Source: Pseudomonadota bacterium
GTDB lineage: Bacteria > Desulfobacterota > Syntrophorhabdia > Syntrophorhabdales > Syntrophorhabdaceae
DNA: 24,000 bases
Assembly: GCA_026388255.1 (NCBI GenBank)
Contig: JAPLKC010000131.1
Span: forward strand, 17,373 to 41,372
Direction: 5' to 3'
In this document: positions 2,015-22,351 of the stretch, in pieces
Position numbering within the stretch: position 1 is the stretch's first letter
Layout: each line of letters begins with the position of its first letter
The notes under the pieces: generated by a model
What the model saw: only the letters and a program-made list of their open reading frames with translations
Told to the model about the DNA's origin: nothing
The model's database searches: none
Position numbers and translations under genes: made by a program

Positions 2015-2779
2015 ATGAAGATAGAAATACTCGGGTGTTATGGAAATGTAACGGGCAATTACAGGGCAACGTCGTTTCTTGTAAACGATACCCTTCTGAT
2101 AGACGCAGGCACGGTTACTGAAGTGCTTGACGATAAACAGTTGGGTCGTATAAAAAATGTGATTATAAGTCATACGCACATTGATCACGTTAAGGGTATT
2201 TTCCCCTTTGCTGATGAGCTTGCCATGATGAATATAGAAGGCTTGAAACTCCTGAGCGTGAAAAACATACTTGATATTATATCTAAAAACCTCTTCAATA
2301 ACCTCATATGGCCTGATTTTACCATAATACCTTCTGTGAACAACGCCATCATAAATCTGCAGGAAATAGCGCTTGAGCAGGAATCACTCATAGATAACAT
2401 CATCATAAAACCTGTTCTCATGACACACACCGTTTATACAGTCGGGTATGTGATAAAAGAAGGCGAAAAGGGCTTCATGTTCACTGCAGACACCGGTCCT
2501 ACGAAAAGGTTCTGGGAGGTGGCAAGAGAAGAGAAAGGCATAGAATTTATTATTGCCGACGTCTCATTTCCAAACCGCTTAGAGGGCATGGCAAAGATTT
2601 CCGGACACATGACGCTGTCCATACTCATTGAGCATCTTGACAGGTTCGGGCTTGACGATATGCCGGTTTATATAAGCCATATAAAACCCATTTTCCTGAA
2701 TGAAATTCTGAATGAATTAACTCTATCAGAAAGAAGTAATATCAAACCTCTTGAACAGGGGGCCAGGATAGTATTATGA
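2015..2779 (+). CDS. MBL-fold hydrolase resembling class-II 3',5'-cyclic-nucleotide phosphodiesterase
   Basis: 254-aa ORF. The N-terminus is MKIEILGCYGN...SFLVNDTLLIDAGT. The metal motif ISHTHIDHVKGI is close to the class-II cNMP phosphodiesterase signature HxHLDHxxG. Confidence 0.7.
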   Translation: MKIEILGCYGNVTGNYRATSFLVNDTLLIDAGTVTEVLDDKQLGRIKNVIISHTHIDHVKGIFPFADELAMMNIEGLKLLSVKNILDIISKNLFNNLIWPDFTIIPSVNNAIINLQEIALEQESLIDNIIIKPVLMTHTVYTVGYVIKEGEKGFMFTADTGPTKRFWEVAREEKGIEFIIADVSFPNRLEGMAKISGHMTLSILIEHLDRFGLDDMPVYISHIKPIFLNEILNELTLSERSNIKPLEQGARIVL

Positions 2780-2827
2780 TATACTATAGGTGATTTTAAA
2801 TATAAATCTAATATAACGGGGTGGGTT

Positions 2828-4405
2828 ATGAAGAAATATTTTATTACTTTTGCTTCATGTTTTTTTATTTTATTTCTTGCGGGTTTTGCCTTTAGTGAAA
2901 CCTTATTTGACCAAGGCCTCAAAGACTTCAAAGATGAAAACTATGAAGAGGCCCTTGCAAACCTCATTGAGGCTCGTAAGCTTGAACCCACCTCAACAAC
3001 GGCAGCCTTTTATCTCGGACTTACCTACAAAATCCTGGAGAATTACAAAGAGGCTGTGCCTCATCTGCGGGATGCCGTCACCTTCAGCCCTCCTGTCAGG
3101 GAAGCCCTTGTAGAGCTGATAGACTCATTATATCAGACTGAAAACTTAGATGAAGCAAATAAATGGATTGCAGTGGGTGAAAAAGAAGGCATCGCTCCTG
3201 CACGTATTCAATTCCTGAAAGGGCTCAATTTGCTTAAAGAAAACAAAAACGCCGACGCCATTGTTGCCTTTGAGAAAGCAAAGGAGATGGACAAGACCGT
3301 TGCCCAGGCAGCCGATTTCCAGATCGCCAGCGCCTATATGAAGATAGGAAAGCTAAAGGACTCACAGAAACGTTTTAAATCATTGATTACCCTTGATCCC
3401 ACATCAGACCTCGCCACCTATGCAAGGGATTACGACAGGGCCGTAACAGACAAGATAGAGGCGGAACGACCTTTCAGGTTCAATGTGAGCCTCGGCTACA
3501 AATACGATTCCAACGTGAATGCACGGCCTGCATCAGGTACTGTCTTCGATAACCCGAATAACTCATCTATGGTTTCCGGTCAGGAAGACACAGCGCTCAA
3601 TGCAAACATCCGTGCCATTTACATCGCACCTTTCTCTTTCAAAACCCCCTATAGCCTTTCCGTGCAGTACACCCTATCTGCCGACCGTTATATGAGAAGG
3701 GACGATTACAACTTGGCGCAACAGTCTGTCACGGTCACCCCCGGATACAGCTTCAGCAAGGTTGCTCTTACCGTACCGCTTCTATTCGGCTATATCAACC
3801 TGCAGAGGGAAAAGGGCAATGATTTCCTGAACAAACTTGACTGGTGGTCGGATACCCGGTATCTCCTTACTATGGGACTCACCCCTACAGCAAGATATAT
3901 GATCAACGACAAGAATATTCTGGAGCTTACTTACGGGTTTATGCGGAATAAATATTACAATACTACCGAAATTACCGTGGCTCCGGACCCCAATGAAGAC
4001 CGGGACGGCGAGAGCAACAGTGGCTCTCTCGGATGGACATACTTTTTTAAAGAAGGAACAGGAATATTTACCATTAAGTATACCTATACCGCCATGGGAA
4101 CCGACGGGCACAACTGGTCCTATGATGAGGACAGGTTCAGCCTGAGTTTCCTCTATCCACTGAAGAAGAACCTCAAGTTCCAGTATTCATCGGATGCCGC
4201 ATTTACAAAATACAAACACGACAACACGATCTTTAACATCGCAAGAAGGGACGATACATTCACCAACTCCATCGGCCTTATCTATACGCTTTTCAAGAAT
4301 ATGGACATTATCGGACAATTTACCTATACTAAGGACAATTCCAATATAAGCACATACGATTATGACAAATCCATTGCTTCTATCAGTGTAGAATACAGGT
4401 TTTAA
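2828..4405 (+). CDS. Outer-membrane protein: signal peptide + N-terminal TPR region + C-terminal beta-barrel (Slam/DUF560-like architecture)
   Basis: 525-aa ORF with a signal peptide (FITFASCFFILFLAGFAFS). TPR-like helices cover aa ~25-200 (YEEALANLIEARKLEP, AAFYLGLTYKILENYKEAVPHLRDAV, ADAIVAFEKAKEMD). The C-terminal ~320 aa show an alternating aromatic/polar strand pattern. The protein ends in a typical OMP beta-signal, ISVEYRF. Confidence 0.75.
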   Translation: MKKYFITFASCFFILFLAGFAFSETLFDQGLKDFKDENYEEALANLIEARKLEPTSTTAAFYLGLTYKILENYKEAVPHLRDAVTFSPPVREALVELIDSLYQTENLDEANKWIAVGEKEGIAPARIQFLKGLNLLKENKNADAIVAFEKAKEMDKTVAQAADFQIASAYMKIGKLKDSQKRFKSLITLDPTSDLATYARDYDRAVTDKIEAERPFRFNVSLGYKYDSNVNARPASGTVFDNPNNSSMVSGQEDTALNANIRAIYIAPFSFKTPYSLSVQYTLSADRYMRRDDYNLAQQSVTVTPGYSFSKVALTVPLLFGYINLQREKGNDFLNKLDWWSDTRYLLTMGLTPTARYMINDKNILELTYGFMRNKYYNTTEITVAPDPNEDRDGESNSGSLGWTYFFKEGTGIFTIKYTYTAMGTDGHNWSYDEDRFSLSFLYPLKKNLKFQYSSDAAFTKYKHDNTIFNIARRDDTFTNSIGLIYTLFKNMDIIGQFTYTKDNSNISTYDYDKSIASISVEYRF

Positions 4406-4415
4406 GGAGGTTATT

Positions 4416-7157
<2,742 letters not shown>

Positions 7158-7162
7158 ACGAC

Positions 7163-7687
7163 ATGCATATGACAAAAAGAACGGTCATTGCCTGCTTCTT
7201 TATAATCTGTATTGTTGCCGTACTGGATATGCTCCCGGTTTCAGCACAGGAACTTAAAATCGGGATTTTCGACCTCCAAAAGATCATGAGGGAGTCAAAA
7301 ACCGTTGGCGGTTACCGCCAGGATTTTCTGAAAAGCATTGAAACAAAAAGAAAGCCTCTACAGGATAAAGAAGAATTTGCAAAGGCTATTGAAGACAAGA
7401 TCAAAAAGGATGGCAGCAGTCTTTTGCCGGGGGACAGGAAGGCCATTGAAGAAAAGCTTGTTGACGAAAGCAAGGAAATCAGAAGGATGAAAGAGGATTT
7501 TAACGCCGAGGCGATGAAGATGGACAGGGAACTGGCACAGAAGGCCTTTTTGGAAATAGATGTAATTATCAAAAAAATAGCCGAACAGGAGAATTATACT
7601 ATCATATTTGAAAAAACTGCTGCCGGAATAGTCCACTTTAAAAACACGGTTGATATCACAGGCAAGATACTTGAACAATTCAAGTAA
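7163..7687 (+). CDS. Skp/OmpH-family periplasmic chaperone
   Basis: The track ORF 6983..7687 overlaps the previous gene. A sensible start is the in-frame ATG at 7163 (or 7169), which gives MHMTKRTVIACFFIICIVAVLDMLPVSAQELKIGIFDLQKIM. That is a signal peptide followed by the charged coiled-coil-like body typical of OmpH/Skp. Confidence 0.7.
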   Translation: MHMTKRTVIACFFIICIVAVLDMLPVSAQELKIGIFDLQKIMRESKTVGGYRQDFLKSIETKRKPLQDKEEFAKAIEDKIKKDGSSLLPGDRKAIEEKLVDESKEIRRMKEDFNAEAMKMDRELAQKAFLEIDVIIKKIAEQENYTIIFEKTAAGIVHFKNTVDITGKILEQFK

Positions 7688-7698
7688 GTATTACAGTA

Positions 7699-7726
7699 AG
7701 CCCTGCCTTACAGTCAGGGCTTTTTT
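7699..7726 (+). terminator. Rho-independent terminator between convergent genes
   Basis: The stem agccctg (7699-7705) pairs with cagggct (7715-7721) around a 9-nt loop. A T6 run follows at 7721-7726. It lies between the skp stop (7687) and the cyclase stop (7728). Confidence 0.75.
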
Positions 7727-7727
7727 A

Positions 7728-9686
7728 CTACTTCTCAGAAAACTTCACCACTTCTTTTTCTGCAGAACACTCTGCAATAGCGCATTCCTCTCCCTCTCCT
7801 AAAGATGATATCGCATAGATTGCAACAGGCTCGGCTTTGCCCTTTACCGCAACCCTGTCAAGCCCTTCGACTTTTAGTCTCCACATCTTCCCTTCGGTGA
7901 TTATCCCTCTTATTTTATCGAGGGTAGATTCTGTAATAATGACGTCCGAGTCGTATTTACGTGTAAGTCCCTCCACCCTTGCGCCCAGGTTCACATTGTC
8001 GCCAATAACCGTATAATCCATCTTTTTCCCTTCAGCACCGATATTGCCTACGATAACCTCACCGGTATTGATGCCGAAACCTGCATAAAGAGACTCTCTG
8101 CCTTCAGATTCCCATTTTGCATGAAGCTCACCCAACCTCCTCTTCATATGAAGCGTACATTTGACTGCAAGCTCTGCATGGTTTTCCTGGGGCAAGGGGG
8201 CGCCCCAGAAGGCGACAATCTCATCCCCCACAAACTTGTCAAGGGTGCCCTCCCATTGGAATATTATATCCGTCATCTCTCCAAGATATTCATTGAGAAT
8301 TTGCACAACCTGCTCCGGCGAATGTTTCTCTGAAAATGTTGTAAAACCCCGCACGTCTGAAAACATGACGGTAATTTCCCTTCTCTCGCCGCCAAGTTTT
8401 GCAAGGCTTGGATTCTTTATAAGTTCATTGACAACTCTTTCCGTCACATAACTCGAGAACATGCCCCGTATCCTTTTGGCATACCGCTCCTCTGTTGCAT
8501 ACCGGTAAGCCGTTATAGTAAAATATGTAATTACCAGGTTGCTCCCTGTAAAGCTTAAGTCAATCCATATATTTTTCTCGAAAAAGAAATAATTGGCAAT
8601 CAAATAAAGCGCTCCTATAAAAACAAAGGAGAGAAGGGCGCCGAATAACGCTTTTAGCCTTACAATCAAAATAGAGAAAATTATGCCGGAGATAAGAATA
8701 ATCAAAATATTTGTAAGATTTGTGATTCTAAAAATAAAATCTTTATGCAATATAGATGTTATAACATTCGCGTGCTTCTCCACACCGGCCATGATCCCTG
8801 TGGGTGTTACCCTCAAATCATATATCCCTACCGCAGTTGCCCCGATAAGAACGATCTTGTCTTTAATTTTAGATGGGGCTACCTTGTTCTGAAGAACATC
8901 AAGAGCAGATATTTGCGGCGTCGTCCCCTCCGGCCCATAGTAGCGTATGAGCGTCCTACCCCAGAAATCCGTAGGGATAAAGCTATCCCCCAGTTGAATC
9001 CCATCGGTTGCCTTCAGCGTCATTGCCTCCATTGGCAAGCCCATAAAAACCCTTGCTGCCTGGAGGCTTATGGATGGAAATATTTCCCCGTCGAATTCCA
9101 CGGCCATTATTTCCCACCTGAGGACCCCGTCCTTGTCCGGGATCATATTAATATGACCGAGTGTCTTTGCACCCGCTGAAATTTCCTTTAACGGCATAAG
9201 GACTTTATTGGCGCTTATAGGTGGAAATATCTTAAAATTACCGGAGTCGCGCACCATAGGGAAAGAACTGTCATACAGAATATTCTCGCTTATCTTGCTT
9301 TTTTCACCCTTAAAATCAAAAACAACAGGGAGGATAACGTTTCCGGCTTTTTTTATGGATGCTGCAAGAACATCATCGTCTTTCCAGGGTTCGCTGAAAA
9401 TAATATCCAGAGCAATGACCTTTGCTCCCATTTCATTTAAAGCATCTATCATAAGGGCTACTTTGCTCCTGTCCCAGGGCCATCTTCCTATTTTTTCAAG
9501 GCTTTTGTCGTCAATCCCCACAATTACGACCTCTTTCAACGGAGCTTTCATTCCATGAATATGATATCTTACATCGTAGAGAAGAAGTTCAAGGCGCTCA
9601 AGAGGAACAAATTTGATGACAACAAGTGTAGCAAATATAAGTGTAATAATGACCCCGATTATTGTTGGAAGGAGTGTTTTTCTCAT
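7728..9686 (-). CDS. CHASE2-sensor class III adenylate/guanylate cyclase
   Basis: 652-aa ORF with an N-terminal TM helix. The periplasmic CHASE2-like region reads VVIVGIDDKSLEKIGRWPWDRSKVALMIDALNEMGAKVIALDIIFSEP. TM helices follow around aa 330-400. The C-terminal class III cyclase motifs are REITVMFSDVRGFTTFSE...KFVGDEIVAFWGAP...GINTGEVIVGNIG...DYTVIGDNVNLGARVE. Confidence 0.9.
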   Translation of the reverse strand: MRKTLLPTIIGVIITLIFATLVVIKFVPLERLELLLYDVRYHIHGMKAPLKEVVIVGIDDKSLEKIGRWPWDRSKVALMIDALNEMGAKVIALDIIFSEPWKDDDVLAASIKKAGNVILPVVFDFKGEKSKISENILYDSSFPMVRDSGNFKIFPPISANKVLMPLKEISAGAKTLGHINMIPDKDGVLRWEIMAVEFDGEIFPSISLQAARVFMGLPMEAMTLKATDGIQLGDSFIPTDFWGRTLIRYYGPEGTTPQISALDVLQNKVAPSKIKDKIVLIGATAVGIYDLRVTPTGIMAGVEKHANVITSILHKDFIFRITNLTNILIILISGIIFSILIVRLKALFGALLSFVFIGALYLIANYFFFEKNIWIDLSFTGSNLVITYFTITAYRYATEERYAKRIRGMFSSYVTERVVNELIKNPSLAKLGGERREITVMFSDVRGFTTFSEKHSPEQVVQILNEYLGEMTDIIFQWEGTLDKFVGDEIVAFWGAPLPQENHAELAVKCTLHMKRRLGELHAKWESEGRESLYAGFGINTGEVIVGNIGAEGKKMDYTVIGDNVNLGARVEGLTRKYDSDVIITESTLDKIRGIITEGKMWRLKVEGLDRVAVKGKAEPVAIYAISSLGEGEECAIAECSAEKEVVKFSEK

Positions 9687-9826: not shown

Positions 9827-9936
9827 TGGACCTTATGGAGCTCGAAAATATTGGTTAATTAGTTGTTTTTACTTACTATTTAAGAAAATTAATTTCATGG
9901 GGTTTTAATAAAATACCCTATTTTTTAATGTTTTTT

Positions 9937-9969
9937 ATCACAGTTTTATTACAGTTTTATCACAGTGGG
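9937..9969 (+). repeat. Three tandem 11-nt direct repeats next to the tRNA fragment
   Basis: The units are atcacagtttt, attacagtttt and atcacagtggg, contiguous from 9937 to 9969. Confidence 0.8.
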
Positions 9970-10768: not shown

Positions 10769-10886
10769 AAACAAGGGACACTCATAGCCAGATATGGTAT
10801 GAAGCCCGTAGCAACCTTATGGGGTGGAATAAAAATGAAGCCCGTGATGTTTTTGCGAGCTAATTAACTCTGGGTGTCCCTTGTTT
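10769..10886 (+). ncRNA. Candidate structured RNA or MITE-like element: a 16-bp closing stem around ~86 nt
   Basis: aaacaagggacactca (10769-10784) pairs with tgggtgtcccttgttt (10871-10886). Thirteen pairs are a perfect run, followed by one G-T and two further pairs. The interior holds a direct repeat of atgaagcccgt at 10799-10809 and 10835-10845. It also holds a small hairpin, cccgta/tatggg. No ORF covers it. Confidence 0.3.
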
Positions 10887-10999: not shown

Positions 11000-11255
11000 C
11001 CACCTATCAAACATACAGGCTTTCCTGCAAATCTGAGAATTATTGAAGTCGAGATTTGCAACTGGTGCGTTTGTGTAGCAGCTTTCATTCGATAATGCAC
11101 AAGGATGATCAATATGAAAATTGTTTTACCAAATTATTAAAGCCACCTACCAATCAAGCCTATGGCCCTTTCAATGGATCCGATGATTATTTATTGAAGT
11201 CGAGATTTGCAACTGGAGCGTTCGAATGGCAGCTTTCTTTCCGTAATCCGCAAAA
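11000..11255 (+). repeat. Tandem duplication of a ~145-151-bp non-coding unit with a 26-nt identical core
   Basis: The core ttattgaagtcgagatttgcaactgg occurs at 11040-11065 and again at 11191-11216. Similarity continues downstream (gcgtt..gcagctttc.tt..g.taat.c.caa) and upstream (ccacctaYcaa at 11000 and 11143). The two copies fall in different reading frames, and copy A hits a stop codon. Confidence 0.85.
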
Positions 11256-11442
11256 GTAATCAGTGGGAAAATTAAATTCGCCGGTTATTAACGCCGCCCA
11301 TAAAACTTGCAGGCCAGGGCATAAGTAAAATTGTCGGTTGCCAGTTGAAATATTTTATCGCCATCGAAGAAATATTATTTAAAAATATTGTCTGTTAATT
11401 ATCAAACTTATATTCAGCATTTTTTTCAAAATATATTTTCCA

Positions 11443-11476
11443 CTGCCATACACTTGGCAGTCAGGCATGGTATAAA
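11443..11476 (+). promoter_or_regulatory. Palindromic operator + extended -10 promoter of WYL regulator 1 (site 1)
   Basis: CTGCCA (11443-11448), tacact, TGGCAG (11455-11460), then 10 nt ending in TGg, then TATAAA (11471-11476). The RBS ggagg and the ATG at 11504 follow. Confidence 0.6.
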
Positions 11477-11503
11477 ATACACAAGAAACATGTGGAGGTA
11501 TAA

Positions 11504-12451
11504 ATGTCATTTAAATTTGATTCATTAATGAGGATTCTTAACATGCTTGACAGAAAAGAAAAGGTAACAGTACAGTCGCTTATGTATGATTTGAATATCA
11601 GTGAGAGGAGCACCTACCGCTATGTGACAACCCTGAAAGATGCCGATTTCCCCATCAACTTTGACAGGGAAAAGGGTACATATACCTTCGAAGAAGGGTA
11701 TAGCCTGAGCAAGCCGGACCTTACACTGGAAGAGATCCTTGCCTTCTCTCTGGCCAGGAAACTCCTCGGTAATTTTGGCCCCGGCATGGAAACTACCCTT
11801 GATCAGATAGAAAAAAAGATTTCCATAAAGAAATCCGGGGTATTAAAGAATGTTATTTTCTCTCATGAAGATTTTTCAGCCAAGGTTGGAGAGTACCTTT
11901 TTTCCATTCACCAGGCAATTCAGAATTTTCAGAAGATTGAACTTGTTTACAGGGCGCTCTATTCAGACGAAGTGACAAAACGTAAGGTAAACCCTTACTA
12001 TCTTTTTTCCCAGGATGATTTATGGCATTTCAGGGCATATTGTAATCTGAGAAAAGATTTTAGAACTTTTGCTCTTGATCGTATAAAATCAATGAGAATA
12101 CTCGATGAACACTTTGTCCCTGGAAGAATCCCGCAAGAAGATGAACTTGCAGGTGCTTTCGGAACATATATCGATGGTGAACCCGTAGAGGTAGTCATGA
12201 GATTTGATGAAGATATAAAACCCTATATTCTGCGGAAAAAATGGCATAAAAGCCAGCAGGATCACCCTCTTGATGACGGGAGAATTGAACTGACCTTTAT
12301 TGTTAACGGCATTGAAGGCATAAAGCAATGGGTATATAAATGGCTCCCATATGTTGAGGTTATAGAACCGAAAGAACTTAAGGCAACACTATTGGAAGAC
12401 TTGACTAGATCCATTGAGAAAAACAGGAAAACAATGAAAGGTAAAACGTGA
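11504..12451 (+). CDS. HTH-WYL-domain transcriptional regulator (BrxR/CapW/YafY-like), paralogue 1
   Basis: 315-aa ORF. The N-terminal wHTH reads RILNMLDRKEKVTVQSLMYDLNISERSTYRYVTTLKDADFPI. The central WYL-type region reads YRALYSDEVTKRKVNPYYLFSQDDLWHFRAYCNLRKDFRTFALDRI. The C-terminal WCX-like part reads KWHKSQQ...VNGIEGIKQWVYKWLPYVEVIEPKEL. Confidence 0.85.
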   Translation: MSFKFDSLMRILNMLDRKEKVTVQSLMYDLNISERSTYRYVTTLKDADFPINFDREKGTYTFEEGYSLSKPDLTLEEILAFSLARKLLGNFGPGMETTLDQIEKKISIKKSGVLKNVIFSHEDFSAKVGEYLFSIHQAIQNFQKIELVYRALYSDEVTKRKVNPYYLFSQDDLWHFRAYCNLRKDFRTFALDRIKSMRILDEHFVPGRIPQEDELAGAFGTYIDGEPVEVVMRFDEDIKPYILRKKWHKSQQDHPLDDGRIELTFIVNGIEGIKQWVYKWLPYVEVIEPKELKATLLEDLTRSIEKNRKTMKGKT

Positions 12452-12544
12452 AGGGTCAAAAAACAATATCGGATAGCTGTTTTGTAGATCGATGAATAGG
12501 AGCACAAATCAGCAATAAAGACTTTTGTAAAAAAAGGGAGTACC

Positions 12545-14026
12545 ATGGAATATAACAAGAAAGATGAAATATACCTAAACAAGTCGCTCTTTATCAGGGC
12601 TCTCCAGTGCCACAAATCACTCTATCTCAAGAAGCACCAACCTGATTTGGCAGAGACGCCTTCTGAGGACCAGCAGGCAAGAATGGAGAGCGGACAAGAA
12701 GTCGGCATCCTTGCTCAGGATTTATTCCCGGGAGGCATAGAGATTCCGTATGAGGGATTAAGTTATGATGAGCAGCTTGCAAGAACAGATGAAGCAGTCA
12801 GGACGGGCCATACGATCTATGAAGGCGCCTTCAGATATGACAATATTTTCATTAAAGTTGATATCCTTTACAAAGGTGCTGACGGCTGGGAACTCTATGA
12901 GGTAAAGGGATCAACGGAGGTCAAGGAATACCACACAAACGACATTTCCCTTCAGTACTATGTCCTTAAAAATGCCGGTATCCCCGTATCGAGGGCATGT
13001 CTTGTCCATATCAACAACCAGTATATACGTAACGGTGAAATAGAGGTTGGTAAACTCTTTATCTCAGAGGACCTTACCGGTATGGTTCAGGAGAAAGAAA
13101 GCTTAGTCAGGGAAGAGGTTGCAAAGATGCGGGAGATGCTGAATGGTGACGTGCCTCAAATTGATATTGGAAGTTACTGCGACGACCCGTACCCATGTGA
13201 TTTTAGCAGCCACTGCTGGAAACACATTCGGGAAGGGTCTGTCTTTGACCTGGCAGGCAGGGGCGTTGACCGTTACGACCTTTACTACAAGGGGGTCAAA
13301 AGACTCATCGACATCCCCACAGACATTCTCACGAACAGCCAGAGGATTCAAGTTGAGTGCGCAAGGGACAAAAGCAGCATAATTGACAAGGAACAGTTAA
13401 GGAAATTCCTTTCACGGCTCTGGTATCCGCTCTATTTTCTTGATTTCGAGACATATATGCCTGCCATCCCCCTTTATGACGGGATGTCACCCTACCAGCA
13501 GATGCCTTTTCAGTATTCTCTATTCGTGCAGATAAATGAAGGAGTGCCCCTTCAACACTATGAATACATTGCTCAACCCAACGTTGATCCGAGGAGAGAG
13601 CTTATCGAAAAACTCCTTTATGAGATTCCCCAGGGGTCATGCGGACTTGCCTACAACTCCTCTTTTGAGGTAAACAGACTGAATGAACTTGCTGTATGGC
13701 TTCCAGAATACAAGGATACAATTGCTGAAATTACAGAAAACATTATTGACCTGGCAATACCTTTCAGAAGCAAATATGTCTACTCATGGGAAATGTGTGG
13801 TTCTTACTCACAGAAGGCTGTACTGCCTGCTCTTGTACCTGAGCTGAGTTATAACGGTATGGAAGTTGCTGACGGCGGTATGGCTATGGATGCCTACTTC
13901 CAGATGTGTACCTCCAAAGATCAGGACGAAATTGAAAGAATCAGGAAAGCCCTCCTCGAATACTGTAAGCTCGATACTTTGGGAATGGTGAAGATTTTGG
14001 AGAAGCTGAAGGCACTTATCTTATAG
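12545..14026 (+). CDS. DUF2779-type protein: N-terminal Cas4-like PD-(D/E)xK nuclease with a Cys cluster + C-terminal FET-motif domain
   Basis: 493-aa ORF with RBS gggag. The N-terminus LNKSLFIRALQCHKSLYLKK is typical of the family. The nuclease motif is VDILYKGADGWELYEVKGS (D...ExK). A Cys cluster, C-x5-C-x5-C (YCDDPYPCDFSSHC), is joined by the N-terminal Cys. The hallmark FLDFETYMPAIPLYDGMSPYQQMPFQYSL is present. Later AYNSSFEVNRL and ADGGMAMDAY suggest a DEDD-like exonuclease arrangement. Confidence 0.75.
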   Translation: MEYNKKDEIYLNKSLFIRALQCHKSLYLKKHQPDLAETPSEDQQARMESGQEVGILAQDLFPGGIEIPYEGLSYDEQLARTDEAVRTGHTIYEGAFRYDNIFIKVDILYKGADGWELYEVKGSTEVKEYHTNDISLQYYVLKNAGIPVSRACLVHINNQYIRNGEIEVGKLFISEDLTGMVQEKESLVREEVAKMREMLNGDVPQIDIGSYCDDPYPCDFSSHCWKHIREGSVFDLAGRGVDRYDLYYKGVKRLIDIPTDILTNSQRIQVECARDKSSIIDKEQLRKFLSRLWYPLYFLDFETYMPAIPLYDGMSPYQQMPFQYSLFVQINEGVPLQHYEYIAQPNVDPRRELIEKLLYEIPQGSCGLAYNSSFEVNRLNELAVWLPEYKDTIAEITENIIDLAIPFRSKYVYSWEMCGSYSQKAVLPALVPELSYNGMEVADGGMAMDAYFQMCTSKDQDEIERIRKALLEYCKLDTLGMVKILEKLKALIL

Positions 14027-14565
14027 TGTTAAACCTTAGGAATGATACGGAAATAAAACGAGCCCTGGAAGAAAGGGGTTTTGTTACAACCTGGAGCGAT
14101 CCTTTTTTTGACTGGATTCGCAAATCCAATGCCAACAGCTCCGAACTGCCAGAAAAACCACAGCGGTTTTTCATCACTGATCCTCCAGTTCCGAAGGTTG
14201 CTCCCTTTGACATCGCCACAATAAGAATAGACACCTCCAACGATTCCATCTACTTTGCCCTCACCTTCTATTTCTCCAGTGTTATGGAACCATGTCTTGG
14301 ACCGGAGGACTTCCATGAGGTCTTTCATAAACATGATACGTACTGGATCGTAAAGCTCGAAGAATATTTCAGTGAAATAGAACATCGGTTTAAGCTCAAA
14401 TGGAATATTGAATACGATTCAACCATTGAAGATACTCTCTACGGCTTGTTTCTATTTGATCAGGATGAAAAGGTTTTCGAAATTCTGGAAGCGTTAAAAA
14501 TATCGCAGGATTCTGTTTGCCGGAAGGCTGGCAATCAAATGGGTTTAACCAATTTAGGAGGATAG
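14026..14565 (+). CDS. Hypothetical protein (no recognisable motif)
   Basis: 179-aa ORF with a GTG start that overlaps the last base of the upstream stop codon, an arrangement consistent with translational coupling. The start codon is uncertain. Confidence 0.5.
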   Translation: MLNLRNDTEIKRALEERGFVTTWSDPFFDWIRKSNANSSELPEKPQRFFITDPPVPKVAPFDIATIRIDTSNDSIYFALTFYFSSVMEPCLGPEDFHEVFHKHDTYWIVKLEEYFSEIEHRFKLKWNIEYDSTIEDTLYGLFLFDQDEKVFEILEALKISQDSVCRKAGNQMGLTNLGG

Positions 14566-14570
14566 AAGAA

Positions 14571-15086
14571 ATGAAAGGAAGATCTCAATTCATTGGCGCT
14601 GCTGGTCAGCATTACGTCGCTTATTGCCTCTCAATCCGTGGTATACACGCCGCTATTACACTTGGCAATGTGCCTGCCGTTGATGTGATTGTAGCGAAGC
14701 CAGACGGAGAGCTTGCACTGTCAATTCAAGTCAAAACATCCAGATGGGCGCACCGGCCTAATCGATACGGCAAGGAGTTGTGTGAATGGGATGTCGGCTC
14801 CTCCGCTGTCAATCGCTTTAGTGACCATCTCTGGTATGCGTTTGTCGATTTGCAGGAAAGCGATACACCTCCATGGAATCCACGCGTGTTCCTTGTCCCA
14901 TCCTTATGGGTCGGCAAGTTCGTAAAGGATGAATGGTCACGGAAACTATATATGCTGCCAAAAGATGCTTGGCCTCTCTGTCTTGAACGTTGGGACAGGA
15001 TTAACGCTTTTTTTGACGGCGAATTAGAGACTTGCAATTGGTACAGCACTATTCCACCGGAGGCAGCAGATTGGGAAGCCTCCTAA
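14571..15086 (+). CDS. Small putative PD-(D/E)xK-fold (Hjc/Mrr-like) protein
   Basis: The track ORF starts at 14517. The ATG at 14571 has a strong RBS (aggagg, 14556-14561) and lies 5 nt after the upstream stop. The translation MKGRSQFIGAAGQHYVAYCLSIRGIHAAITLGNVPAVDVIVAKPDGELALSIQVKTS shows the G..G......L...G, D-x-I, QVK layout of restriction-endonuclease-fold proteins. Q sits where E is usual. Confidence 0.55.
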   Translation: MKGRSQFIGAAGQHYVAYCLSIRGIHAAITLGNVPAVDVIVAKPDGELALSIQVKTSRWAHRPNRYGKELCEWDVGSSAVNRFSDHLWYAFVDLQESDTPPWNPRVFLVPSLWVGKFVKDEWSRKLYMLPKDAWPLCLERWDRINAFFDGELETCNWYSTIPPEAADWEAS

Positions 15087-15147: not shown

Positions 15148-15181
15148 CTGCCAAACAGGTGGCAGAAGGGTCTGCTATACT
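15148..15181 (+). promoter_or_regulatory. Palindromic operator + extended -10 promoter (site 2) upstream of the 15203 operon
   Basis: CTGCCA (15148-15153), aacagg, TGGCAG (15160-15165), then 10 nt ending in TGc, then TATACT (15176-15181). The RBS aaggaga and the ATG at 15203 follow. Confidence 0.6.
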
Positions 15182-15202: not shown

Positions 15203-15997
15203 ATGGACGGAGGAAGCTTGCAAAACGGTACATCTGGGCAGTTGCTGATGTGGGAAGCCATAGACTATTTTATTTCCGCCGGTAAAGTTGTTTGCCGGCT
15301 TTTCAAGGATGATTTAAGGGAATTGGTCTCTAAGTCAGATAACAGGTTTAAATCTATGCACCTCAGAGAACCGTTCACCGTTGATTTGGGTCAGAATAAA
15401 TTGTCTGCCGGTAATTATAAGAGAGAAGAAGAAGGATATGCCGACTGGCTTATATGGATTCTGATGCAGCTCAGCGGTGCACAAATATTGAGTATATTCG
15501 GGATAACAGACGAAACAACCCTGAAATCCTGCACTTCTTTGACGCCTGTTATTAAGAAGGAGGTAAGTGTTCGGCCATGTCCGGAAACACCGTATGTCAG
15601 GACCGATATCCTGATAATTTATACAGATATACTTTTAATACACGTTGCAGTGAAGGTAATCGACGCCAGAATAGCTCATGTTCAGGAGCAAGGTGTTTAT
15701 AGAAAATCGCTTGAAGGGAGAGGGTTTGAACATATTCCGAAGTGCCACCATATACTGCTTGTAATTAATTCATTCCATGAAGAATACGATGGATATAAAG
15801 TGCTGAGATGGGCTGATTTATGTCTTAACCTCAGACAAATAATTCTTACAGAAGGGAGTCTTGATAATCTACTCGTTAAATCAGCAATAGCAATATTTGT
15901 CGGTATAGTCGAACAAACTTTGTTAGGCCTTTCAGTCAGCGGTTTTTCCGGCAGCTCAAAATTGATAGATTATATGGAATTAATATTAAGGCGATAA
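15203..15997 (+). CDS. PDDEXK_4-like protein, apparently degenerate (ExK replaced by AVK)
   Basis: 264-aa ORF. EEEGYADWLIWILMQL resembles the N-terminal E..hs.wLa.LL motif of the neighbouring 16708 protein. The core is YVRTDILIIYTDILLIHVAVKVID, with Ala at the catalytic Glu position. Confidence 0.5.
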   Translation: MDGGSLQNGTSGQLLMWEAIDYFISAGKVVCRLFKDDLRELVSKSDNRFKSMHLREPFTVDLGQNKLSAGNYKREEEGYADWLIWILMQLSGAQILSIFGITDETTLKSCTSLTPVIKKEVSVRPCPETPYVRTDILIIYTDILLIHVAVKVIDARIAHVQEQGVYRKSLEGRGFEHIPKCHHILLVINSFHEEYDGYKVLRWADLCLNLRQIILTEGSLDNLLVKSAIAIFVGIVEQTLLGLSVSGFSGSSKLIDYMELILRR

Positions 15998-16001
15998 CAA
16001 T

Positions 16002-16637
16002 ATGGATAATCAGAAAAACCTGAATGTTTCTCTCGATAATTTATTGGAACAAGGAATGCAATCGTATCTGTTTGCGTTACTTACAGTACAACAGTTCAGG
16101 GTAGAGGTTCAAAAACGAACATTAAATGCCCTAACAGGAAAAATCAAAGAACTTGGCGATGCCATGGGCAGGGATATTGATGAAAGCTGGTTAAAACCCT
16201 ATATAAATCCTGATGGTCTGTCAGACCCAGGCTATGATGGAAGCAGAGCCGAGGTTTCGTTAAAGCTTTTTGTAGCTCCGGTGGACTGCTATTTTGGAAT
16301 GCGCTTCGAGCTTGATGGTGAGGGGAAAACAGAATCTTATGTCACGGTAAATATGTGGCCATGGACAAAGGAGCAGATGCATTTCTTACTTCAGAAAACC
16401 AAAGAAGTTACTGACGACTTTAATAACAATATGGGAAATGAAATAGAAATTCGTGAAATTCTCAACCCGGCAGAGCATGAGTTTTTTGAGAAAAAATTGA
16501 TTGCCCTGATAGATAAATGGATAGCTGTTTGGAAAAAAGTGGGCGGCATTGATACAATGAATAATGGTTTTCCATCTGAGTTTGCAACTGCCTACCCCTT
16601 GAAAGCAAGTCCAGAAGCTGCGCCAGGTCATCCCTAA
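16002..16637 (+). CDS. Hypothetical protein
   Basis: 211-aa ORF that starts 4 nt after the upstream stop. I recognise no motif. Confidence 0.55.
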   Translation: MDNQKNLNVSLDNLLEQGMQSYLFALLTVQQFRVEVQKRTLNALTGKIKELGDAMGRDIDESWLKPYINPDGLSDPGYDGSRAEVSLKLFVAPVDCYFGMRFELDGEGKTESYVTVNMWPWTKEQMHFLLQKTKEVTDDFNNNMGNEIEIREILNPAEHEFFEKKLIALIDKWIAVWKKVGGIDTMNNGFPSEFATAYPLKASPEAAPGHP

Positions 16638-16707: not shown

Positions 16708-17871
16708 ATGAATATAGATGAATTTCTTAGAGGCCTACACGGAAGACTCGAAAGCTTTCAGCATGCACGGGAATTGTATGCACCACGGCTGGCCCCTGAT
16801 TTTAATAGCTTTAATGTTATCTCTCCGGATGAAATGCGATTGTCAAAAATCCTGGCAACATTGCTTGATCCTGCCGGTGAACATGCACAAGGTCCAGCGT
16901 TTCTAAAGGCGTTCCTGCACTGGGCCCAACTTGAAGGCTACTTGGCTGAATCCAATCCGGTAAAGGTTCAAACTGAAGTGGTTACTGACCGCATCGACAA
17001 TCCAATGCGCCGAATGGATATTATCATAGACTTCGGGGATGCGGCCATTGTCATCGAAAATAAGCCATGGACCGGCGATCAAAGTGAACAGGTAAGCGAT
17101 TATGTCAAACAGGTGAAGAGTAGCCATCCTAACAATTTTTGCCTGTTATATTTATCTGGTACAGGCGAACCACCAACTGAAGCGAGTGTTTTGCCAACCA
17201 ATAGGGCGGAATTAGAGAGAAAAGAACAGCTCAAAGTTAAACCATACTCTACCCTATTGGATTGGCTAACTGGCTGCAAGGCTGTCTGCCAGTCTGAAAG
17301 GGTAAGACATTTTCTTGATGATTTTTCGGATTATATCCGTCAGCAATTTATGGGGGTACACGACATGACTGAATTTAATGAAATCTCCAACGCCGTAAGA
17401 AAAACGAAGGAAACGCTTCGGGCAGCCCTTAAGGTAGCTGCCAATATTGACGGCATCAAGATAGATTTACTTGATCAGCTTAAAGCCCAACTTACCGACA
17501 GAGTTCAAAAAAGGTCCTGGATTCTTGACTGGCATATTGAGTATTGGAATAAATATTCATGTTTCGGGATTTCCTTTGCTAAGGAGCAACAACAATATGA
17601 AGTATGGTTTGAATTTGATGGCAAACAATGTCAGGGATTGCATTATGGTATATTAGATAAAAATCTCTTAAACCAAGAAGAAATCCGGAATCGCCTCAAT
17701 AGCAATATTACAACTGGCAAAAATGGCGACGGGTGGCTTTGGAGAATAGATGGTCCTGAACCTTACCTTTATTGGCTCAATAGCGAAGAACCATGGATGG
17801 ACATTATTTGCAACGATAAACTTGCGGATATGGTAATCGAGTATGCCGAGAAAATTTATCAAGCGTTGTAG
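16708..17871 (+). CDS. PD-(D/E)xK nuclease family protein (PDDEXK_4-like)
   Basis: 387-aa ORF with RBS agagga. FNVISPDEMRLSKILATLLDPAGEHAQGPAFLKAFL matches the family's N-terminal motif. The catalytic core is RRMDIIIDFGDAAIVIENKPWTGDQSEQVSDY, giving D, ExK and QxxxY. Confidence 0.7.
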   Translation: MNIDEFLRGLHGRLESFQHARELYAPRLAPDFNSFNVISPDEMRLSKILATLLDPAGEHAQGPAFLKAFLHWAQLEGYLAESNPVKVQTEVVTDRIDNPMRRMDIIIDFGDAAIVIENKPWTGDQSEQVSDYVKQVKSSHPNNFCLLYLSGTGEPPTEASVLPTNRAELERKEQLKVKPYSTLLDWLTGCKAVCQSERVRHFLDDFSDYIRQQFMGVHDMTEFNEISNAVRKTKETLRAALKVAANIDGIKIDLLDQLKAQLTDRVQKRSWILDWHIEYWNKYSCFGISFAKEQQQYEVWFEFDGKQCQGLHYGILDKNLLNQEEIRNRLNSNITTGKNGDGWLWRIDGPEPYLYWLNSEEPWMDIICNDKLADMVIEYAEKIYQAL

Positions 17872-18494: not shown

Positions 18495-18528
18495 CTGCCA
18501 GACTGTTGGCAAAATGATTCGTTATACT
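18495..18528 (+). promoter_or_regulatory. Palindromic operator + -10 promoter (site 3) upstream of the WG-repeat gene
   Basis: CTGCCA (18495-18500), gactgt, TGGCAA (18507-18512), then 10 nt, then TATACT (18523-18528). The spacing is identical to sites 1 and 2. Confidence 0.55.
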
Positions 18529-18540
18529 GTCATAGGGAGG

Positions 18541-19865: not shown

Positions 19866-19899
19866 ATGACATAATGCTGTCAGTTATGTGTGGTATTGT
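19866..19899 (+). promoter_or_regulatory. Palindromic operator + extended -10 promoter of WYL regulator 2 (site 4, variant half-site)
   Basis: ATGACA (19866-19871), taatgc, TGTCAG (19878-19883), then 10 nt ending in TGg, then TATTGT (19894-19899). The RBS aaggag and the ATG at 19926 follow. Confidence 0.55.
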
Positions 19900-19925: not shown

Positions 19926-20852
19926 ATGTCATATAAGTTTGATTCACTTGCTATTATCCTCAACAAGCTTGACAGTAAAGAAACCGTAACGGTTTTATCT
20001 CTTACGGATGAGCTTGAGGTAAGCGGGAGAACCGTTCACAGATATATAAGTACGTTGCAGGTAGCTGGATTCCCTATTGAATACGATAAAATAAAGAATA
20101 GCTACGTTTTTACCGAAGGCTATACTCTTAAAAAACCGACCCTTTCGTTAGAGGAGACTCTTGCCTTTGCTCTTGCGAAGAAATTACTCATAAACTTCGG
20201 ACCGGGTATGGAGAAAAGCCTTTCCGATATTGAGGATAAGCTTTCACCAAAAAAAGGGGACTTCAAACATATCATCCTATCTGCAGATGCTTTGCCTGTA
20301 GCATCTGAGCAGTATCTTGGTCTTATACACCAGGCCATAACGAATTATCAGAGGATCAAGCTCGTGTATAAAGCGCTGTATGCTGATAATCCAACGGAAA
20401 GTAGTATAGACCCATACTATTTGTTTTTCAGAGAAGGCATCTGGTATCTCAGGGGAGATTATCATCTGGAAAAAGCTGCAAGAACCTTCGCCCTTGACAG
20501 GATAGTTTCTTTAACGCTTCTTGATGAGCACTTTATCCCGAAGCCTACCTCCCCTGATGATGAGCTGTCCGCTGCCTTCGGGGCATTTATTGACGGTGAG
20601 CCTGTAGAAGTCGTACTGAGGTTTGACAAACTGAGCAAGCCACTTGTCCTGAGAAAGAAATGGCATAAAAGCCAGCAGATTAAAGAGCTTGAGGACGGAG
20701 GTATAGAGGCAAGATTCACTGTAAACGGCATAAAAGGCATACAACCATGGATCTACAGGTGGATACCTTTTGTAGAGGTTATTGCCCCTGAAGAGTTAAG
20801 AGATATGTTTATCAAGGATCTTGACGAAGCCATTAAAAGACATAAGAAATGA
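19926..20852 (+). CDS. HTH-WYL-domain transcriptional regulator (BrxR/CapW/YafY-like), paralogue 2
   Basis: 308-aa ORF that aligns by eye along its full length with the 11504 protein. Shared segments include MSxKFDSL..ILN.LD.KE.VTV.SL, FGPGME, RTFALDRI, LDEHF.P, DEL..AFG..IDGEPVEVV.RFD, LRKKWHKSQQ and VNGI.GI..W.Y.W.P.VEVI.P.EL. Confidence 0.85.
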   Translation: MSYKFDSLAIILNKLDSKETVTVLSLTDELEVSGRTVHRYISTLQVAGFPIEYDKIKNSYVFTEGYTLKKPTLSLEETLAFALAKKLLINFGPGMEKSLSDIEDKLSPKKGDFKHIILSADALPVASEQYLGLIHQAITNYQRIKLVYKALYADNPTESSIDPYYLFFREGIWYLRGDYHLEKAARTFALDRIVSLTLLDEHFIPKPTSPDDELSAAFGAFIDGEPVEVVLRFDKLSKPLVLRKKWHKSQQIKELEDGGIEARFTVNGIKGIQPWIYRWIPFVEVIAPEELRDMFIKDLDEAIKRHKK

Positions 20853-20983
20853 AACTGCATAAAATAGTTGTTGTAGAAAAGAATAAACTATTAACAAAAA
20901 TATCAGCTTGAATAAAGCTACTATATATGATTATTAGAAATCATATCTGCCTTATTAAAAACAGATTAAAAGGGAGGGGTTAA

Positions 20984-21082
20984 ATGGGACAAGAAGAATA
21001 TTTAGTAAAGTTTTACAAATTGGATTACCTCATCTTGGCAGATTTAAATATAAATTTAACAACAATTTGTTTTCAGAGATAG
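20984..21082 (+). CDS. Possible 32-aa small ORF with a strong Shine-Dalgarno
   Basis: gggagggg (20972-20979) lies 4 nt before the ATG at 20984. The translation is MGQEEYLVKFYKLDYLILADLNINLTTICFQR. No other support. Confidence 0.2.
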   Translation: MGQEEYLVKFYKLDYLILADLNINLTTICFQR

Positions 21083-21118
21083 AAAAAACTAACCTATCAA
21101 AAAAAGGAGTGAAAACAT

Positions 21119-21289
21119 ATGCCAAATGGAGGACATATTTCTTGTGTGCATTGCACGTACAATCGGCAGACATCAGGAACGTGTGATATCTTGAGGATTG
21201 AAACAAGCCCTTTTATCTTATGCAGAGCTTTCAGAAAACTCAAGCAATCTCATACCGAAGCACGAAAAAAAGTGGCCTATGCTAAATGA
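21119..21289 (+). CDS. Small Cys-rich (zinc-ribbon-like) protein, possibly the 5' part of a frameshifted gene
   Basis: The RBS aaggagtg lies 7 nt before the ATG at 21119. The translation MPNGGHISCVHCTYNRQTSGTCDILRIETSPFILCRAF... has four Cys including CxxC. It is too short for the ORF track. The frame ends at 21289, after an A7 run at 21265-21271. Confidence 0.45.
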   Translation: MPNGGHISCVHCTYNRQTSGTCDILRIETSPFILCRAFRKLKQSHTEARKKVAYAK

Positions 21290-21395
21290 TCTGAAGCCTG
21301 GGGTTGTATATGGGATCGATAATTCTTCTTTTTTAGCCGGAGATTCAAGACCGATATATAAACTACAAATTTTCAAAAAAGTGGAGAGAACATGA
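21198..21395 (+). CDS. Overlapping ORF in the +1 frame, probably the 3' part of the same gene
   Basis: Track ORF of 65 aa. Its TTG start has no usable RBS. Its 3' end overlaps the next gene's start in an ATGA junction (21392-21395). This supports translation of this frame downstream of the A7 run (…KKWPMLNDLKPGVVYGIDNSSFLAGDSRPIYKLQIFKK). Confidence 0.35.
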   Translation: MKQALLSYAELSENSSNLIPKHEKKWPMLNDLKPGVVYGIDNSSFLAGDSRPIYKLQIFKKVERT

Positions 21396-22351
21396 ACGAA
21401 GTAAGAAAAGAAGTCGAAAAGATATTATCAGAAAACCAACAGGATTGGGAAGAAAGATTTTATGAGTATTATGAAAAGATAATTAATAACTCGGAAAACA
21501 TAGAGAAAAATAGACAAAAATTTCATATGAGAGGATTTTTACGAGCGTATATGAATTTTGGACAGGCCATGAAAAAAACACCAAAATTTAGTATTCGTTA
21601 CGGAGGACAAATTGCTGGTATAATGAAATTTATGAAAAACAAAAAGGAACCTATCCTTGTAATCACCCCAAAACAAGCTAAAGATAACAATAAGTGGTTT
21701 AAGTTCGATCTTCCAAATGGAGAATACGCTTGGAGATCATCTGCTGAAGCTCAAAAATTTAGAGAGAGATTTGAAAAAAATCCACCGCCACCAGTTAGAC
21801 AAGACGAACACCGCTTAGAAACATTTATTCTTGATGAAATGTTCAACCCTACGATTAAAAAGTTTTGTGGAACTTTTAAAAATATTCAGCCAGTTTGTAT
21901 TGCAAACAATGTTCCTTTCCAGATGCTCATACCAATACGTGCACGCGGAGGAAAGATCGGTTACAAGGATGGTCACATAGATATTGTTGCTCGATATGGT
22001 AGAGGAACAACATCCTTGTTGGCAATTGAAATAAAAAGACCTGGTGGCCAATATCAAGGTGCTGCAAAGCAGGCATACATTTATGCGGTAACCATGTCCT
22101 ATATGTTTAATAAAACAGGAGATAACTTCAAGAAGCACTTATATACGTTATGTGGATATAAAAACGTATATTCAAATCTAAAAATTCATGCTGTGGTTGC
22201 AATTCCCGATACTTATAAATCTAAATTTTCTCAAGAACAAGAATTACTCAATGCTTCTAATATTAACGTTGATATACCTATACATTATATTACTTATCAA
22301 CTTGCAGACAATCAGAGAATTAAAGTTATAGGAACGAGCCTTGAAACTTAA
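21392..22351 (+). CDS. RecB/Cas4-like PD-(D/E)xK nuclease-fold protein (no Cys cluster)
   Basis: 319-aa ORF with RBS ggagag. The core is EHRLETFILDEM ... GHIDIVARYGRGTTSLLAIEIKRPGGQYQGAAKQAYIYA, giving E, D, ExK and QxxxY. I do not recognise the N-terminal ~140 aa. Confidence 0.65.
   Translation: MNEVRKEVEKILSENQQDWEERFYEYYEKIINNSENIEKNRQKFHMRGFLRAYMNFGQAMKKTPKFSIRYGGQIAGIMKFMKNKKEPILVITPKQAKDNNKWFKFDLPNGEYAWRSSAEAQKFRERFEKNPPPPVRQDEHRLETFILDEMFNPTIKKFCGTFKNIQPVCIANNVPFQMLIPIRARGGKIGYKDGHIDIVARYGRGTTSLLAIEIKRPGGQYQGAAKQAYIYAVTMSYMFNKTGDNFKKHLYTLCGYKNVYSNLKIHAVVAIPDTYKSKFSQEQELLNASNINVDIPIHYITYQLADNQRIKVIGTSLET

Follow-up and report, generated by a model that had tools for sequence, protein, structure and literature searches.

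Here we analyse a 24,000-nucleotide (nt) stretch of a Syntrophorhabdaceae genome assembly (Desulfobacterota; GenBank assembly GCA_026388255.1, contig JAPLKC010000131.1, positions 17,373 to 41,372 of the forward strand), hereinafter the window. Open reading frame (ORF) analysis of the window identifies, at positions 11504-15086, four genes on the plus strand, headed by a regulator of the WYL family and a predicted dual nuclease of the DUF2779 family:

11504..12451, plus strand: WYL1, an HTH-WYL-WCX transcription factor of 315 amino acids (aa) (Pfam HTH_11, WYL and WCX; PADLOC WYL model at 2e-39)
12545..14026, plus strand: DUF2779 protein, 493 aa, with an N-terminal Cas4-like PD-(D/E)xK domain with four cysteines and a C-terminal DEDDy-like RNase H-fold domain (Pfam, invariant residues)
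14026..14565, plus strand: p3, 179 aa, GTG start, a small orphan family, the start sharing one base with the DUF2779 stop codon
14571..15086, plus strand: p4, 171 aa, a stand-alone PD-(D/E)xK-fold protein with D38...Q53-x-K55 (AlphaFold model, alignment)

The same-strand arrangement and the junctions described in a first-pass annotation of this sequence were all confirmed. A 93-nt gap separates WYL1 from the DUF2779 gene; base 14026 is both the last base of the TAG stop codon of the DUF2779 gene and the first base of the GTG start codon of p3; and p4 follows p3 after 5 nt, with an AGGAGG Shine-Dalgarno sequence 9 nt before its ATG at 14571. The N-termini of homologues back the 171-aa start of p4, as do gene calls made independently on further contigs from this organism; neither line of evidence supports a longer, TTG-start ORF. 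The operon limits proposed in that annotation also proved reasonable: because two operator-promoters, O1 and O2 (see below), bracket the four genes and no operator lies between them, these genes probably form a single transcription unit in this genome. No inverted repeats were found within the 93-nt gap, and a scan for consensus promoters and terminators was uninformative, with counts at or below the shuffle level. The entire block of the window from 11.4 to 23.7 kb lies on the plus strand.

The 493-aa protein belongs to the DUF2779 family. It matches PF11074 over the whole model length (E = 1.2e-40, 139 bits against a cut-off of 23.3 bits) and carries both PD-(D/E)xK and DEDD-type motifs. The Cas_Cas4 model is matched above the Pfam cut-off (2.3e-5, 25 bits against 22.7 bits), and the RNase_H_2 match (21.9 bits) falls just below its cut-off of 22 bits. 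Across 20 homologues, the PD-(D/E)xK residues D106, E119 and K121, the RecB-type Q137-Y138 pair, the cysteines C22, C212, C218 and C224, and the exonuclease motifs D300-x-E302, N371..F374-E375 and Y473-x3-D477 are all invariant. The Pfam matches and the invariant residues thus bear out the previous assignment of a Cas4-like domain and a DUF2779/DEDD-type domain. The third exonuclease motif, however, is more likely Y473-x3-D477, characteristic of the DEDDy type, than the previously suggested 'MD.Y', which is less conserved in the same alignment. The four invariant cysteines are suggestive of an iron-sulphur cluster. A search of PDB with a sequence profile of the nuclease returned only noise. 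We also considered the possibility that this protein is a Cas4 of a CRISPR adaptation module and ruled it out because the window contains no repeat array and no cas genes, with no Cas1 or Cas2 domains among its proteins.

DUF2779 is a large family of predicted dual nucleases, with more than 6,400 homologues detected at E<=1e-10. Majorek et al. (2014) placed it among the 3'-5' exonucleases and noted the fusion with DUF83/Cas4 (PMC3985635). In a 2026 study of JCVI-syn3.0, the two active sites of the quasi-essential mycoplasma member MMSYN1_0389 were dissected, the mitomycin repair exonuclease MrfB was reported as the best structural match of the DEDD domain, and the family was called functionally uncharacterised (PMC13621843). 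We found no tested role for the family in the literature searched, in agreement with the earlier statement that DUF2779 proteins are not known to have an assigned biological role.

The identification of the first gene product as a WYL regulator is confirmed by Pfam, with matches to HTH_11 (6e-6, positions 9-58), WYL (4.7e-18, 131-198) and WCX (1e-12, 226-302) in a single polypeptide, as required for the wHTH-WYL-WCX class that includes BrxR, CapW and DriD. The nearest relatives of WYL1 with solved structures are PafBC (4e-17), DriD (about 1e-9), CapW (3.5e-8) and BrxR (2e-5). Sensing of single-stranded DNA (ssDNA) by WYL regulators is documented (PMC11662680, PMC9186387, PMC11804915), and, by analogy with these four regulators, ssDNA would be the ligand of WYL1 as well.

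The strongest evidence that a WYL regulator controls the nuclease comes from the distribution of a putative operator. When the upstream regions of five WYL genes, taken from three genomes (both paralogues in the window, two genes in the related locus L001 and one in L004), were aligned, an 18-base pair (bp) palindrome emerged, CTGNCA-N6-TGNCAG, which lies in register upstream of all five and is followed by an extended -10-like element, TGnTAnnnT. The window contains 5 palindrome sites at <=1 mismatch, against 0.48 expected. These sites and the associated elements are as follows:

11443..11460, unstranded: operator O1, perfect, CTGCCA-tacact-TGGCAG, 44 nt upstream of the WYL1 start codon
11468..11476, plus strand: extended -10-like element TGGTATAAA, with 10 nt from the palindrome to the TATAAA hexamer
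11494-11498, plus strand: GGAGG ribosome-binding site for WYL1 (sequence reading)
13239-13256: fifth site, one mismatch, no -10 box, inside the nuclease coding region
15148..15165, unstranded: operator O2, perfect, CTGCCA-aacagg-TGGCAG, followed by TGCTATACT, in the 116-nt spacer after p4
18495..18512, unstranded: operator O3, one mismatch, with TATACT 10 nt downstream, before a gene for a WG-repeat protein
19866..19883, unstranded: operator O4, one mismatch, upstream of a second WYL gene, WYL2 (19926-20852)

The match inside the nuclease gene is probably due to chance. The next transcription unit (15203-15997 and 16002-16637) begins at O2, and the same site is also found before the homologous gene pair in L085. 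Together, O2, O3 and O4, each preceding a further unit, imply a putative common regulon across the 11.4-23.7 kb block.

The palindrome is not confined to this genome. Related loci totalling 858 kb contain 19 perfect copies against 1.0 expected, and at most operator sites of these loci the spacing to TGnTAnnnT is the same as in the window. When sites with <=1 mismatch located <=200 nt upstream of a gene are counted in the same DNA, the operator precedes DUF2779 genes in 8 cases (0.39 expected, P about 1e-8), WYL genes in 6 (0.16 expected), AAA ATPase genes in 4 (0.07 expected) and ARPP-1 genes in 2 (0.04 expected). In L030 and L041, the WYL gene is located 3' of DUF2779, yet the operator, together with a TATAAT or TATAGT box, lies directly before DUF2779. 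Given how far the number of operators just before DUF2779 genes exceeds the expectation, the nuclease appears to be a genuine target of WYL control, and the presence of the palindrome before DUF2779, WYL, AAA ATPase and ARPP-1 genes indicates a putative multi-operon WYL regulon.

Most likely, WYL1 binds the palindrome as a dimer. At some sites, the left half-site serves as the -35 box and the palindrome fills the 17-nt spacer, which is a repressor geometry. At most sites, the right half lies near -26, with a TAnnnT box or extended -10 element about 10 nt further downstream, and this position of the half-site coincides with the PafBC contact on promoters that lack a -35 box. The earlier description of the operon as WYL-repressed therefore stands in part: control by WYL is supported by the operator and by the recurring adjacency of the genes, whereas repression was assumed, and the geometry fits a PafBC-type activator too.

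We then compared the neighbourhoods of related nuclease genes in 80 species-level genomes, mostly Desulfobacterota and Nitrospirota metagenome-assembled genomes (MAGs), with 47-60% nuclease identity and 77 distinct DUF2779 loci, as well as in closer relatives and plasmids. In each of the four closest loci with a readable upstream gene (66-85% identity), the gene just before DUF2779 encodes a WYL regulator; in L004 (8004/8001) and L094, the two genes overlap by 4 nt. At 47-60% identity, a WYL-family gene is found within about 4 genes of DUF2779 in 28 of about 77 loci, and an Aliarcobacter plasmid encodes a WYL protein near a nuclease with 42% identity; the WYL-DUF2779 adjacency recurs across phyla. 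The genes further downstream are far less constant. In L085/L086, p3 directly follows the nuclease and two unrelated small genes occupy the place where p4 would be; L094 lacks p4; and in L001 and L004, the genes downstream of the nuclease are unrelated to those in the window. Because p3 and p4 vary among loci while WYL-DUF2779 recurs, the recurrent unit is the regulator plus the nuclease. The notion of a conserved four-gene system, put forward in the first-pass annotation, is not supported, given that among the other DUF2779 loci examined p4 is found only in L087, and that p3 accompanies the nuclease only in a narrow set of lineages. In L094 (73% nuclease identity), a 290-aa gene of the uracil-DNA glycosylase (UDG) superfamily (1873-2745) is inserted between DUF2779 and the p3 homologue.

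Gene content around the 77 loci is extremely variable, and only a few kinds of neighbour recur: WYL regulators (28 loci), WHD-AAA ATPases (16), ARPP-1 (9), ADP-ribosylglycohydrolase (7), FtsZ-like proteins, DSP-type phosphatases and DUF6915. Within two genes on each side of DUF2779, PADLOC models identify WYL (22), IetA-like AAA (7), SIR2 and PDC-S26 proteins and, in single cases, a methyl-directed restriction enzyme, DrmD, HEC-05, Shedu, BrxH and DpdF. Thus, of the anticipated neighbourhood signature of a defence system, the co-occurrence with WYL and the presence of many defence-type genes in variable surroundings were observed, whereas the enrichment is qualitative only, without a matched genomic background. 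Two MAGs carry two DUF2779 copies each (L006/L007 and L062/L075). On plasmids, DUF2779 genes lie beside genes for a PD-(D/E)xK protein and a WYL protein (Aliarcobacter) or beside genes for large ATPases (Arcobacter, Helicobacter, Selenomonas). The Planktothrix plasmid NZ_LR882954.1 (L099) carries, at 2433-8443, a co-directional row of genes for a DEAD/DEAH helicase, an ATP-binding protein, DUF2779 and a phospholipase D-family protein, which looks like a different, defence-like DUF2779 operon. An unusual companion in WYL/DUF2779 neighbourhoods is a full-length tubulin/FtsZ-family gene, found in L016 (3133-4332), L043, L058, L066 and L071.

The third gene of the unit, p3, is a lineage-restricted companion of the nuclease. 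Its family is small, with about 11 homologues that are close and 72 representatives left after clustering at 50%, and the protein has no sequence match in Pfam, NCBIfam, PHROG, PADLOC or PDB, consistent with the earlier observation that this gene is featureless. The AlphaFold model (predicted local distance difference test score, pLDDT, 84) yields only weak fold matches, all with E > 0.01, namely, the uncharacterised archaeal protein 3cxj (TM 0.41/0.49) and the type III secretion chaperones SycH, SicP and SigE (TM about 0.3-0.4). We found no sequence support for a type III secretion chaperone/YbjN (TY-chaperone) fold in p3, and comparison of the model with viral structures gave nothing meaningful. 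The p3 gene adjoins DUF2779 in the window, L085/L086, L094 and L012; the last of these, where the orientation is convergent, is the only such case among the 80 species-level genomes. In the two closest loci for which DNA is available, L001 and L004 (66-67% nuclease identity), unrelated genes occupy the place of p3; these 179-214-aa genes show no similarity to p3 by BLASTP or by profile-profile comparison.

In contrast to this companion, p4 is a wandering gene, a swappable extra. It has 89 homologues, and the alignment shows D38 and Q53-V-K55 as invariant; an N-terminal G-x-x-G helix precedes D38, and x-K55 follows. The AlphaFold model (pLDDT 91.8) has the restriction-endonuclease-like alpha-beta-beta-beta-alpha-beta core, and the top Foldseek matches are all PD-(D/E)xK proteins (I-Ssp6803I, the SPARDA nuclease subunit, Hjc and EcoRV; probability 0.97-1.00), so the restriction-endonuclease fold previously read from the D...QVK layout is borne out. 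The canonical D...(D/E)-x-K triad is absent, the middle acidic residue being replaced by the invariant Gln53, which makes catalytic competence uncertain; the active site is a variant one or possibly inactive. A role of p4 as a homing endonuclease was considered on the strength of the best match of the model, I-Ssp6803I. Among phage protein families, p4 matches phrog_29029 at 7e-17. It never accompanies the nuclease in the 80 species-level genomes; among the other DUF2779 loci examined, it is present only in L087, where the closest homologue (88% identity) adjoins the DUF2779 gene, upstream rather than downstream. A relative in L088 lies beside a gene for a 1,792-aa DEAD/MZB helicase, and relatives with 66-72% identity are located directly 3' of small serine recombinase (resolvase) genes in L090 (1043-2184), L091 and L092 (3976-5513). 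The p4 gene may be cargo of small mobile elements.

Taken together, these observations make an inducible module for defence or for the response to DNA damage plausible, as opposed to a four-gene system of fixed composition. The reading that we tentatively favour, and to which we give slightly less than even credence, is that of an inducible anti-invader transcription unit under WYL1/operator control that forms an arm of a regulon, with DUF2779 as the conserved cargo, p3 as a companion and p4 as a rider. Under this proposal, the promoter overlapping the operator at 11443-11460 would drive the unit, and WYL1, bound there, would control its own synthesis and that of the downstream genes. The WYL domain would sense ssDNA arising from DNA damage or from an invading replicon, and the unit would then be switched on, by analogy with CapW, BrxR, DriD and PafBC. 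Because DUF2779 joins a Cas4-like domain, presumably with an iron-sulphur cluster, to a DEDDy-type 3'-5' exonuclease domain, the nuclease could, judging from the motifs, chew DNA ends of both polarities. Protein p3, probably translationally coupled to the nuclease, may be its binding partner or a restraint on it, and p4, a PD-(D/E)xK-fold gene that apparently moves on its own, would be a mere passenger of the transcription unit. The module as a whole would be one of the arms of a WYL regulon that spans several operons, set in a fast-changing island of conflict-type genes.

Several observations weigh against this interpretation. The 93-nt gap before DUF2779 could house a separate promoter, and a directly adjacent WYL gene is present in only about 22% of the related loci. 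WYL1 scores higher against PafBC and DriD, which are activators, than against the repressors CapW and BrxR, and its sequence is compatible with either repression or activation. For a defence gene, the nuclease is unusually conserved (47-60% identity across phyla), and its mycoplasma homologue is quasi-essential. DUF2779 is rare on plasmids (33 of 72,556 records) and almost absent from phage genomes; no PADLOC system model includes this nuclease, and the excess of defence genes among its neighbours, lacking a matched genomic background, is qualitative.

Some of the same facts would follow if the locus belonged to a DNA-damage repair regulon, in which WYL1 would be a PafBC/DriD-like, ssDNA-activated activator and DUF2779 a repair or end-processing nuclease co-induced with other DNA-processing enzymes. 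We regard this as a doubtful yet serious possibility. It accounts for the affinity of WYL1 to PafBC and DriD, its best solved relatives; for the right half-site near -26, about 10 nt upstream of TAnnnT at most sites, as with PafBC on promoters without a -35 box; and for the strong conservation of the nuclease and its quasi-essentiality in a minimal mycoplasma. The published similarity of the DEDD domain to MrfB, the UDG-family gene between DUF2779 and p3 in L094, and the beta-CASP metallo-beta-lactamase nuclease of the sister WYL2 module point in the same direction. However, a repair regulon sits uneasily with hypervariable neighbourhoods that include recognised defence genes and with two DUF2779 copies in some genomes; at some sites, the operator spans the 17-nt spacer from -35 to -10, which is typical of repression, and the palindrome implies a homodimer, as opposed to the asymmetric site of PafBC. 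Moreover, CapW demonstrates that ssDNA sensing serves defence systems too. The variable, defence-rich neighbourhoods, the paralogues within genomes and the modular partners speak for a defence-type role, and an inducible anti-invader function of the nuclease is favoured only narrowly over routine repair.

Two other explanations appear improbable. An integrated immune system of four obligate partners, as initially proposed for this locus, would explain the tight junctions, the lack of an operator between the genes, the presence of DUF2779 next to the closest p4 homologue in L087, and the adjacency of p3 to DUF2779 in four contexts. We consider it improbable because p4 is absent from the 80 genome loci, missing in L094 and replaced by two small genes in L085, and lies upstream of DUF2779 in L087 and beside serine recombinases or a helicase elsewhere; in addition, neither L001 nor L004 contains p3, and in L012 this gene and DUF2779 are convergent. 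It is similarly hard to credit that the adjacency involves no shared function, with a constitutively expressed DUF2779 gene bordering a hot spot of WYL-regulated mobile modules: although about 60% of the related loci have no WYL gene nearby, WYL1 and DUF2779 are 93 nt apart and the flanking regions vary strongly, operators are found immediately before DUF2779 genes much more often than expected by chance, the WYL and DUF2779 genes overlap by 4 nt in L004 and L094, and the pairing recurs in Campylobacterota plasmids.

The rest of the island contains further elements of note. The claim that the island is flanked by a broken tRNA gene was not upheld: ARAGORN detected no tRNA, there was no Rfam hit at E<=1, and no T-arm-like fragment was found; neither was an integrase seen among the window proteins. 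The pair of genes behind O2 (15203-16637) encodes proteins of 264 aa and 211 aa without family matches, and homologues with 81-89% identity lie behind the same operator in L085 (1633-3073), where they are followed by DUF6915 and further unknown genes; DUF6915 is found near DUF2779 in five genome loci. The gene at 16708-17871 encodes a 387-aa PDDEXK_4 protein that matches the PADLOC candidate family PDC-S26 at 2.8e-44, and relatives of this type recur near DUF2779 in L017 and L041. O3 and its TATACT box (18495-18530) overlap the ATG called at 18514 for the 354-aa WG-repeat ORF, so this gene probably starts further downstream. The second module (19926-23660) comprises three genes, for WYL2, for a 319-aa protein that matches no family and for a metallo-beta-lactamase/beta-CASP (RNase J-like) protein of 439 aa; the module is kept as a block adjoining the DUF2779 locus in L001 (2262-5741, minus strand).

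Upstream of the WYL1 promoter, there is a direct repeat of roughly 108 nt (11040-11147 and 11191-11298), identical over 26 nt at the start and about 75% identical overall, for which we found no RNA-fold signal and no copies in related loci. The gene-poor stretch before the WYL1 locus also contains a 19-nt inverted repeat (10769-10787 and 10868-10886; 89% complementary, 80-nt spacer). Still further upstream, at 9933-9966, three tandem copies of the 11-nt sequence TTTTATCACAG occupy the intergenic region upstream of a minus-strand gene for a CHASE2-type adenylate cyclase-like protein (7728-9686) and may be a regulatory site.

A WYL regulator upstream of nucleic-acid-targeting cargo is already known as a scheme, and so is the architecture of the DUF2779 nuclease. 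The coupling of WYL to DUF2779, the operator sequence, and a regulon tying DUF2779 to ARPP-1/AAA modules appear to be new in the literature searched. The suggestion of an undescribed WYL-DUF2779 system holds for the WYL link, which appears new, and fails for the dual-nuclease architecture, which has been published (PMC3985635, PMC13621843). No defined system of PADLOC-DB 2.0.0 was matched: genes 1 and 2 matched only the generic WYL model and, weakly, Cas4, and genes 3 and 4 matched nothing in this database.

A broader possibility, which we put forward as speculative and rather unlikely in its full extent, is that DUF2779 nucleases are core effectors of an undescribed multi-operon WYL regulon in Desulfobacterota and Nitrospirota, with CTGNCA-N6-TGNCAG as the operator. 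Such a regulon would be triggered by ssDNA independently of SOS. It would co-induce a nuclease acting on DNA ends of both polarities together with AAA ATPases, further nucleases and ARPP-1/ADP-ribose-processing modules, directed at DNA that is damaged or comes from an invader. If this were the case, it would provide the first functional handle on a family with a quasi-essential member in the synthetic minimal cell JCVI-syn3.0, take WYL/ssDNA-sensing control beyond single operons, to a network of several operons in anaerobic lineages, and tie WYL control to ADP-ribose-processing conflict systems, which so far are only computational predictions. The conserved regulator and the defined 18-bp operator make the DUF2779 family experimentally approachable with respect to the inducing signal and the DNA that is degraded.

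Comparison with known systems places the locus between several precedents. ARG-centric conflict systems with WYL or Nudix regulators have been predicted by Iyer, Burroughs, Aravind and co-workers (2022), who also noted WYL-ARPP gene pairs (PMC9503650). Such systems are built around an ADP-ribosylglycohydrolase, in most cases accompanied by a phosphatase of the rhodanese-phosphatase type. In loci related to ours, the operator and WYL accompany genes for ARPP-1, ADP-ribosylglycohydrolase, DSP-type phosphatases and restriction-fold proteins by DUF2779, several of which are components of the systems predicted there, and the weak fold matches of p3 fall into the type III secretion chaperone/YbjN class reported there. 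In contrast, the window itself contains no ADP_ribosyl_GH, ARPP-1 or phosphatase gene and thus does not encode a member of this class; DUF2779 is not mentioned in the passages of that paper that we searched. For p4, the precedents are I-Ssp6803I, Hjc and the DREN domain of SPARDA, which have a fold in common with the p4 model (TM-score 0.44-0.54 on the query); unlike them, p4 has an invariant glutamine for the acid of (D/E)xK, and a sequence relationship is undetectable, the PDB profile search yielding noise.

With respect to regulation, the locus resembles CapW-CBASS and BrxR-BREX in its three-domain regulator, in the palindrome overlapping a promoter before the regulator gene, in the same-strand effectors downstream and in the expected ligand, which, by analogy, would be ssDNA (PMC11662680). 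It differs in that the cargo is a single predicted dual nuclease with variable extras, neither CBASS nor BREX, in that the operator would serve several separate units, and in that the sequence of WYL1 is nearer to those of PafBC and DriD than to those of CapW and BrxR. PafBC and DriD, WYL activators of SOS-independent DNA-damage regulons from mycobacteria and Caulobacter, respectively, are the best matches of WYL1 among solved structures and likewise control multi-promoter regulons, with a half-site near -26 and a -10 box without a clear -35. However, PafBC is an asymmetric heterodimer that recognises a non-palindromic motif, as opposed to the symmetric palindrome found here, and regulon membership differs, the putative regulon described here comprising ARPP-1, AAA and DUF2779.

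The closest precedent for the nuclease itself is MMSYN1_0389 of JCVI-syn3.0 and the UU173 family, with the same fusion of Cas4-like and DEDD-like domains and conserved D, ExK and DEDD(y) residues. Where the mycoplasma protein has two cluster cysteines, the protein described here has four; it is also shorter (493 aa) and is encoded not in a minimal core genome but in a variable island under apparent WYL control.

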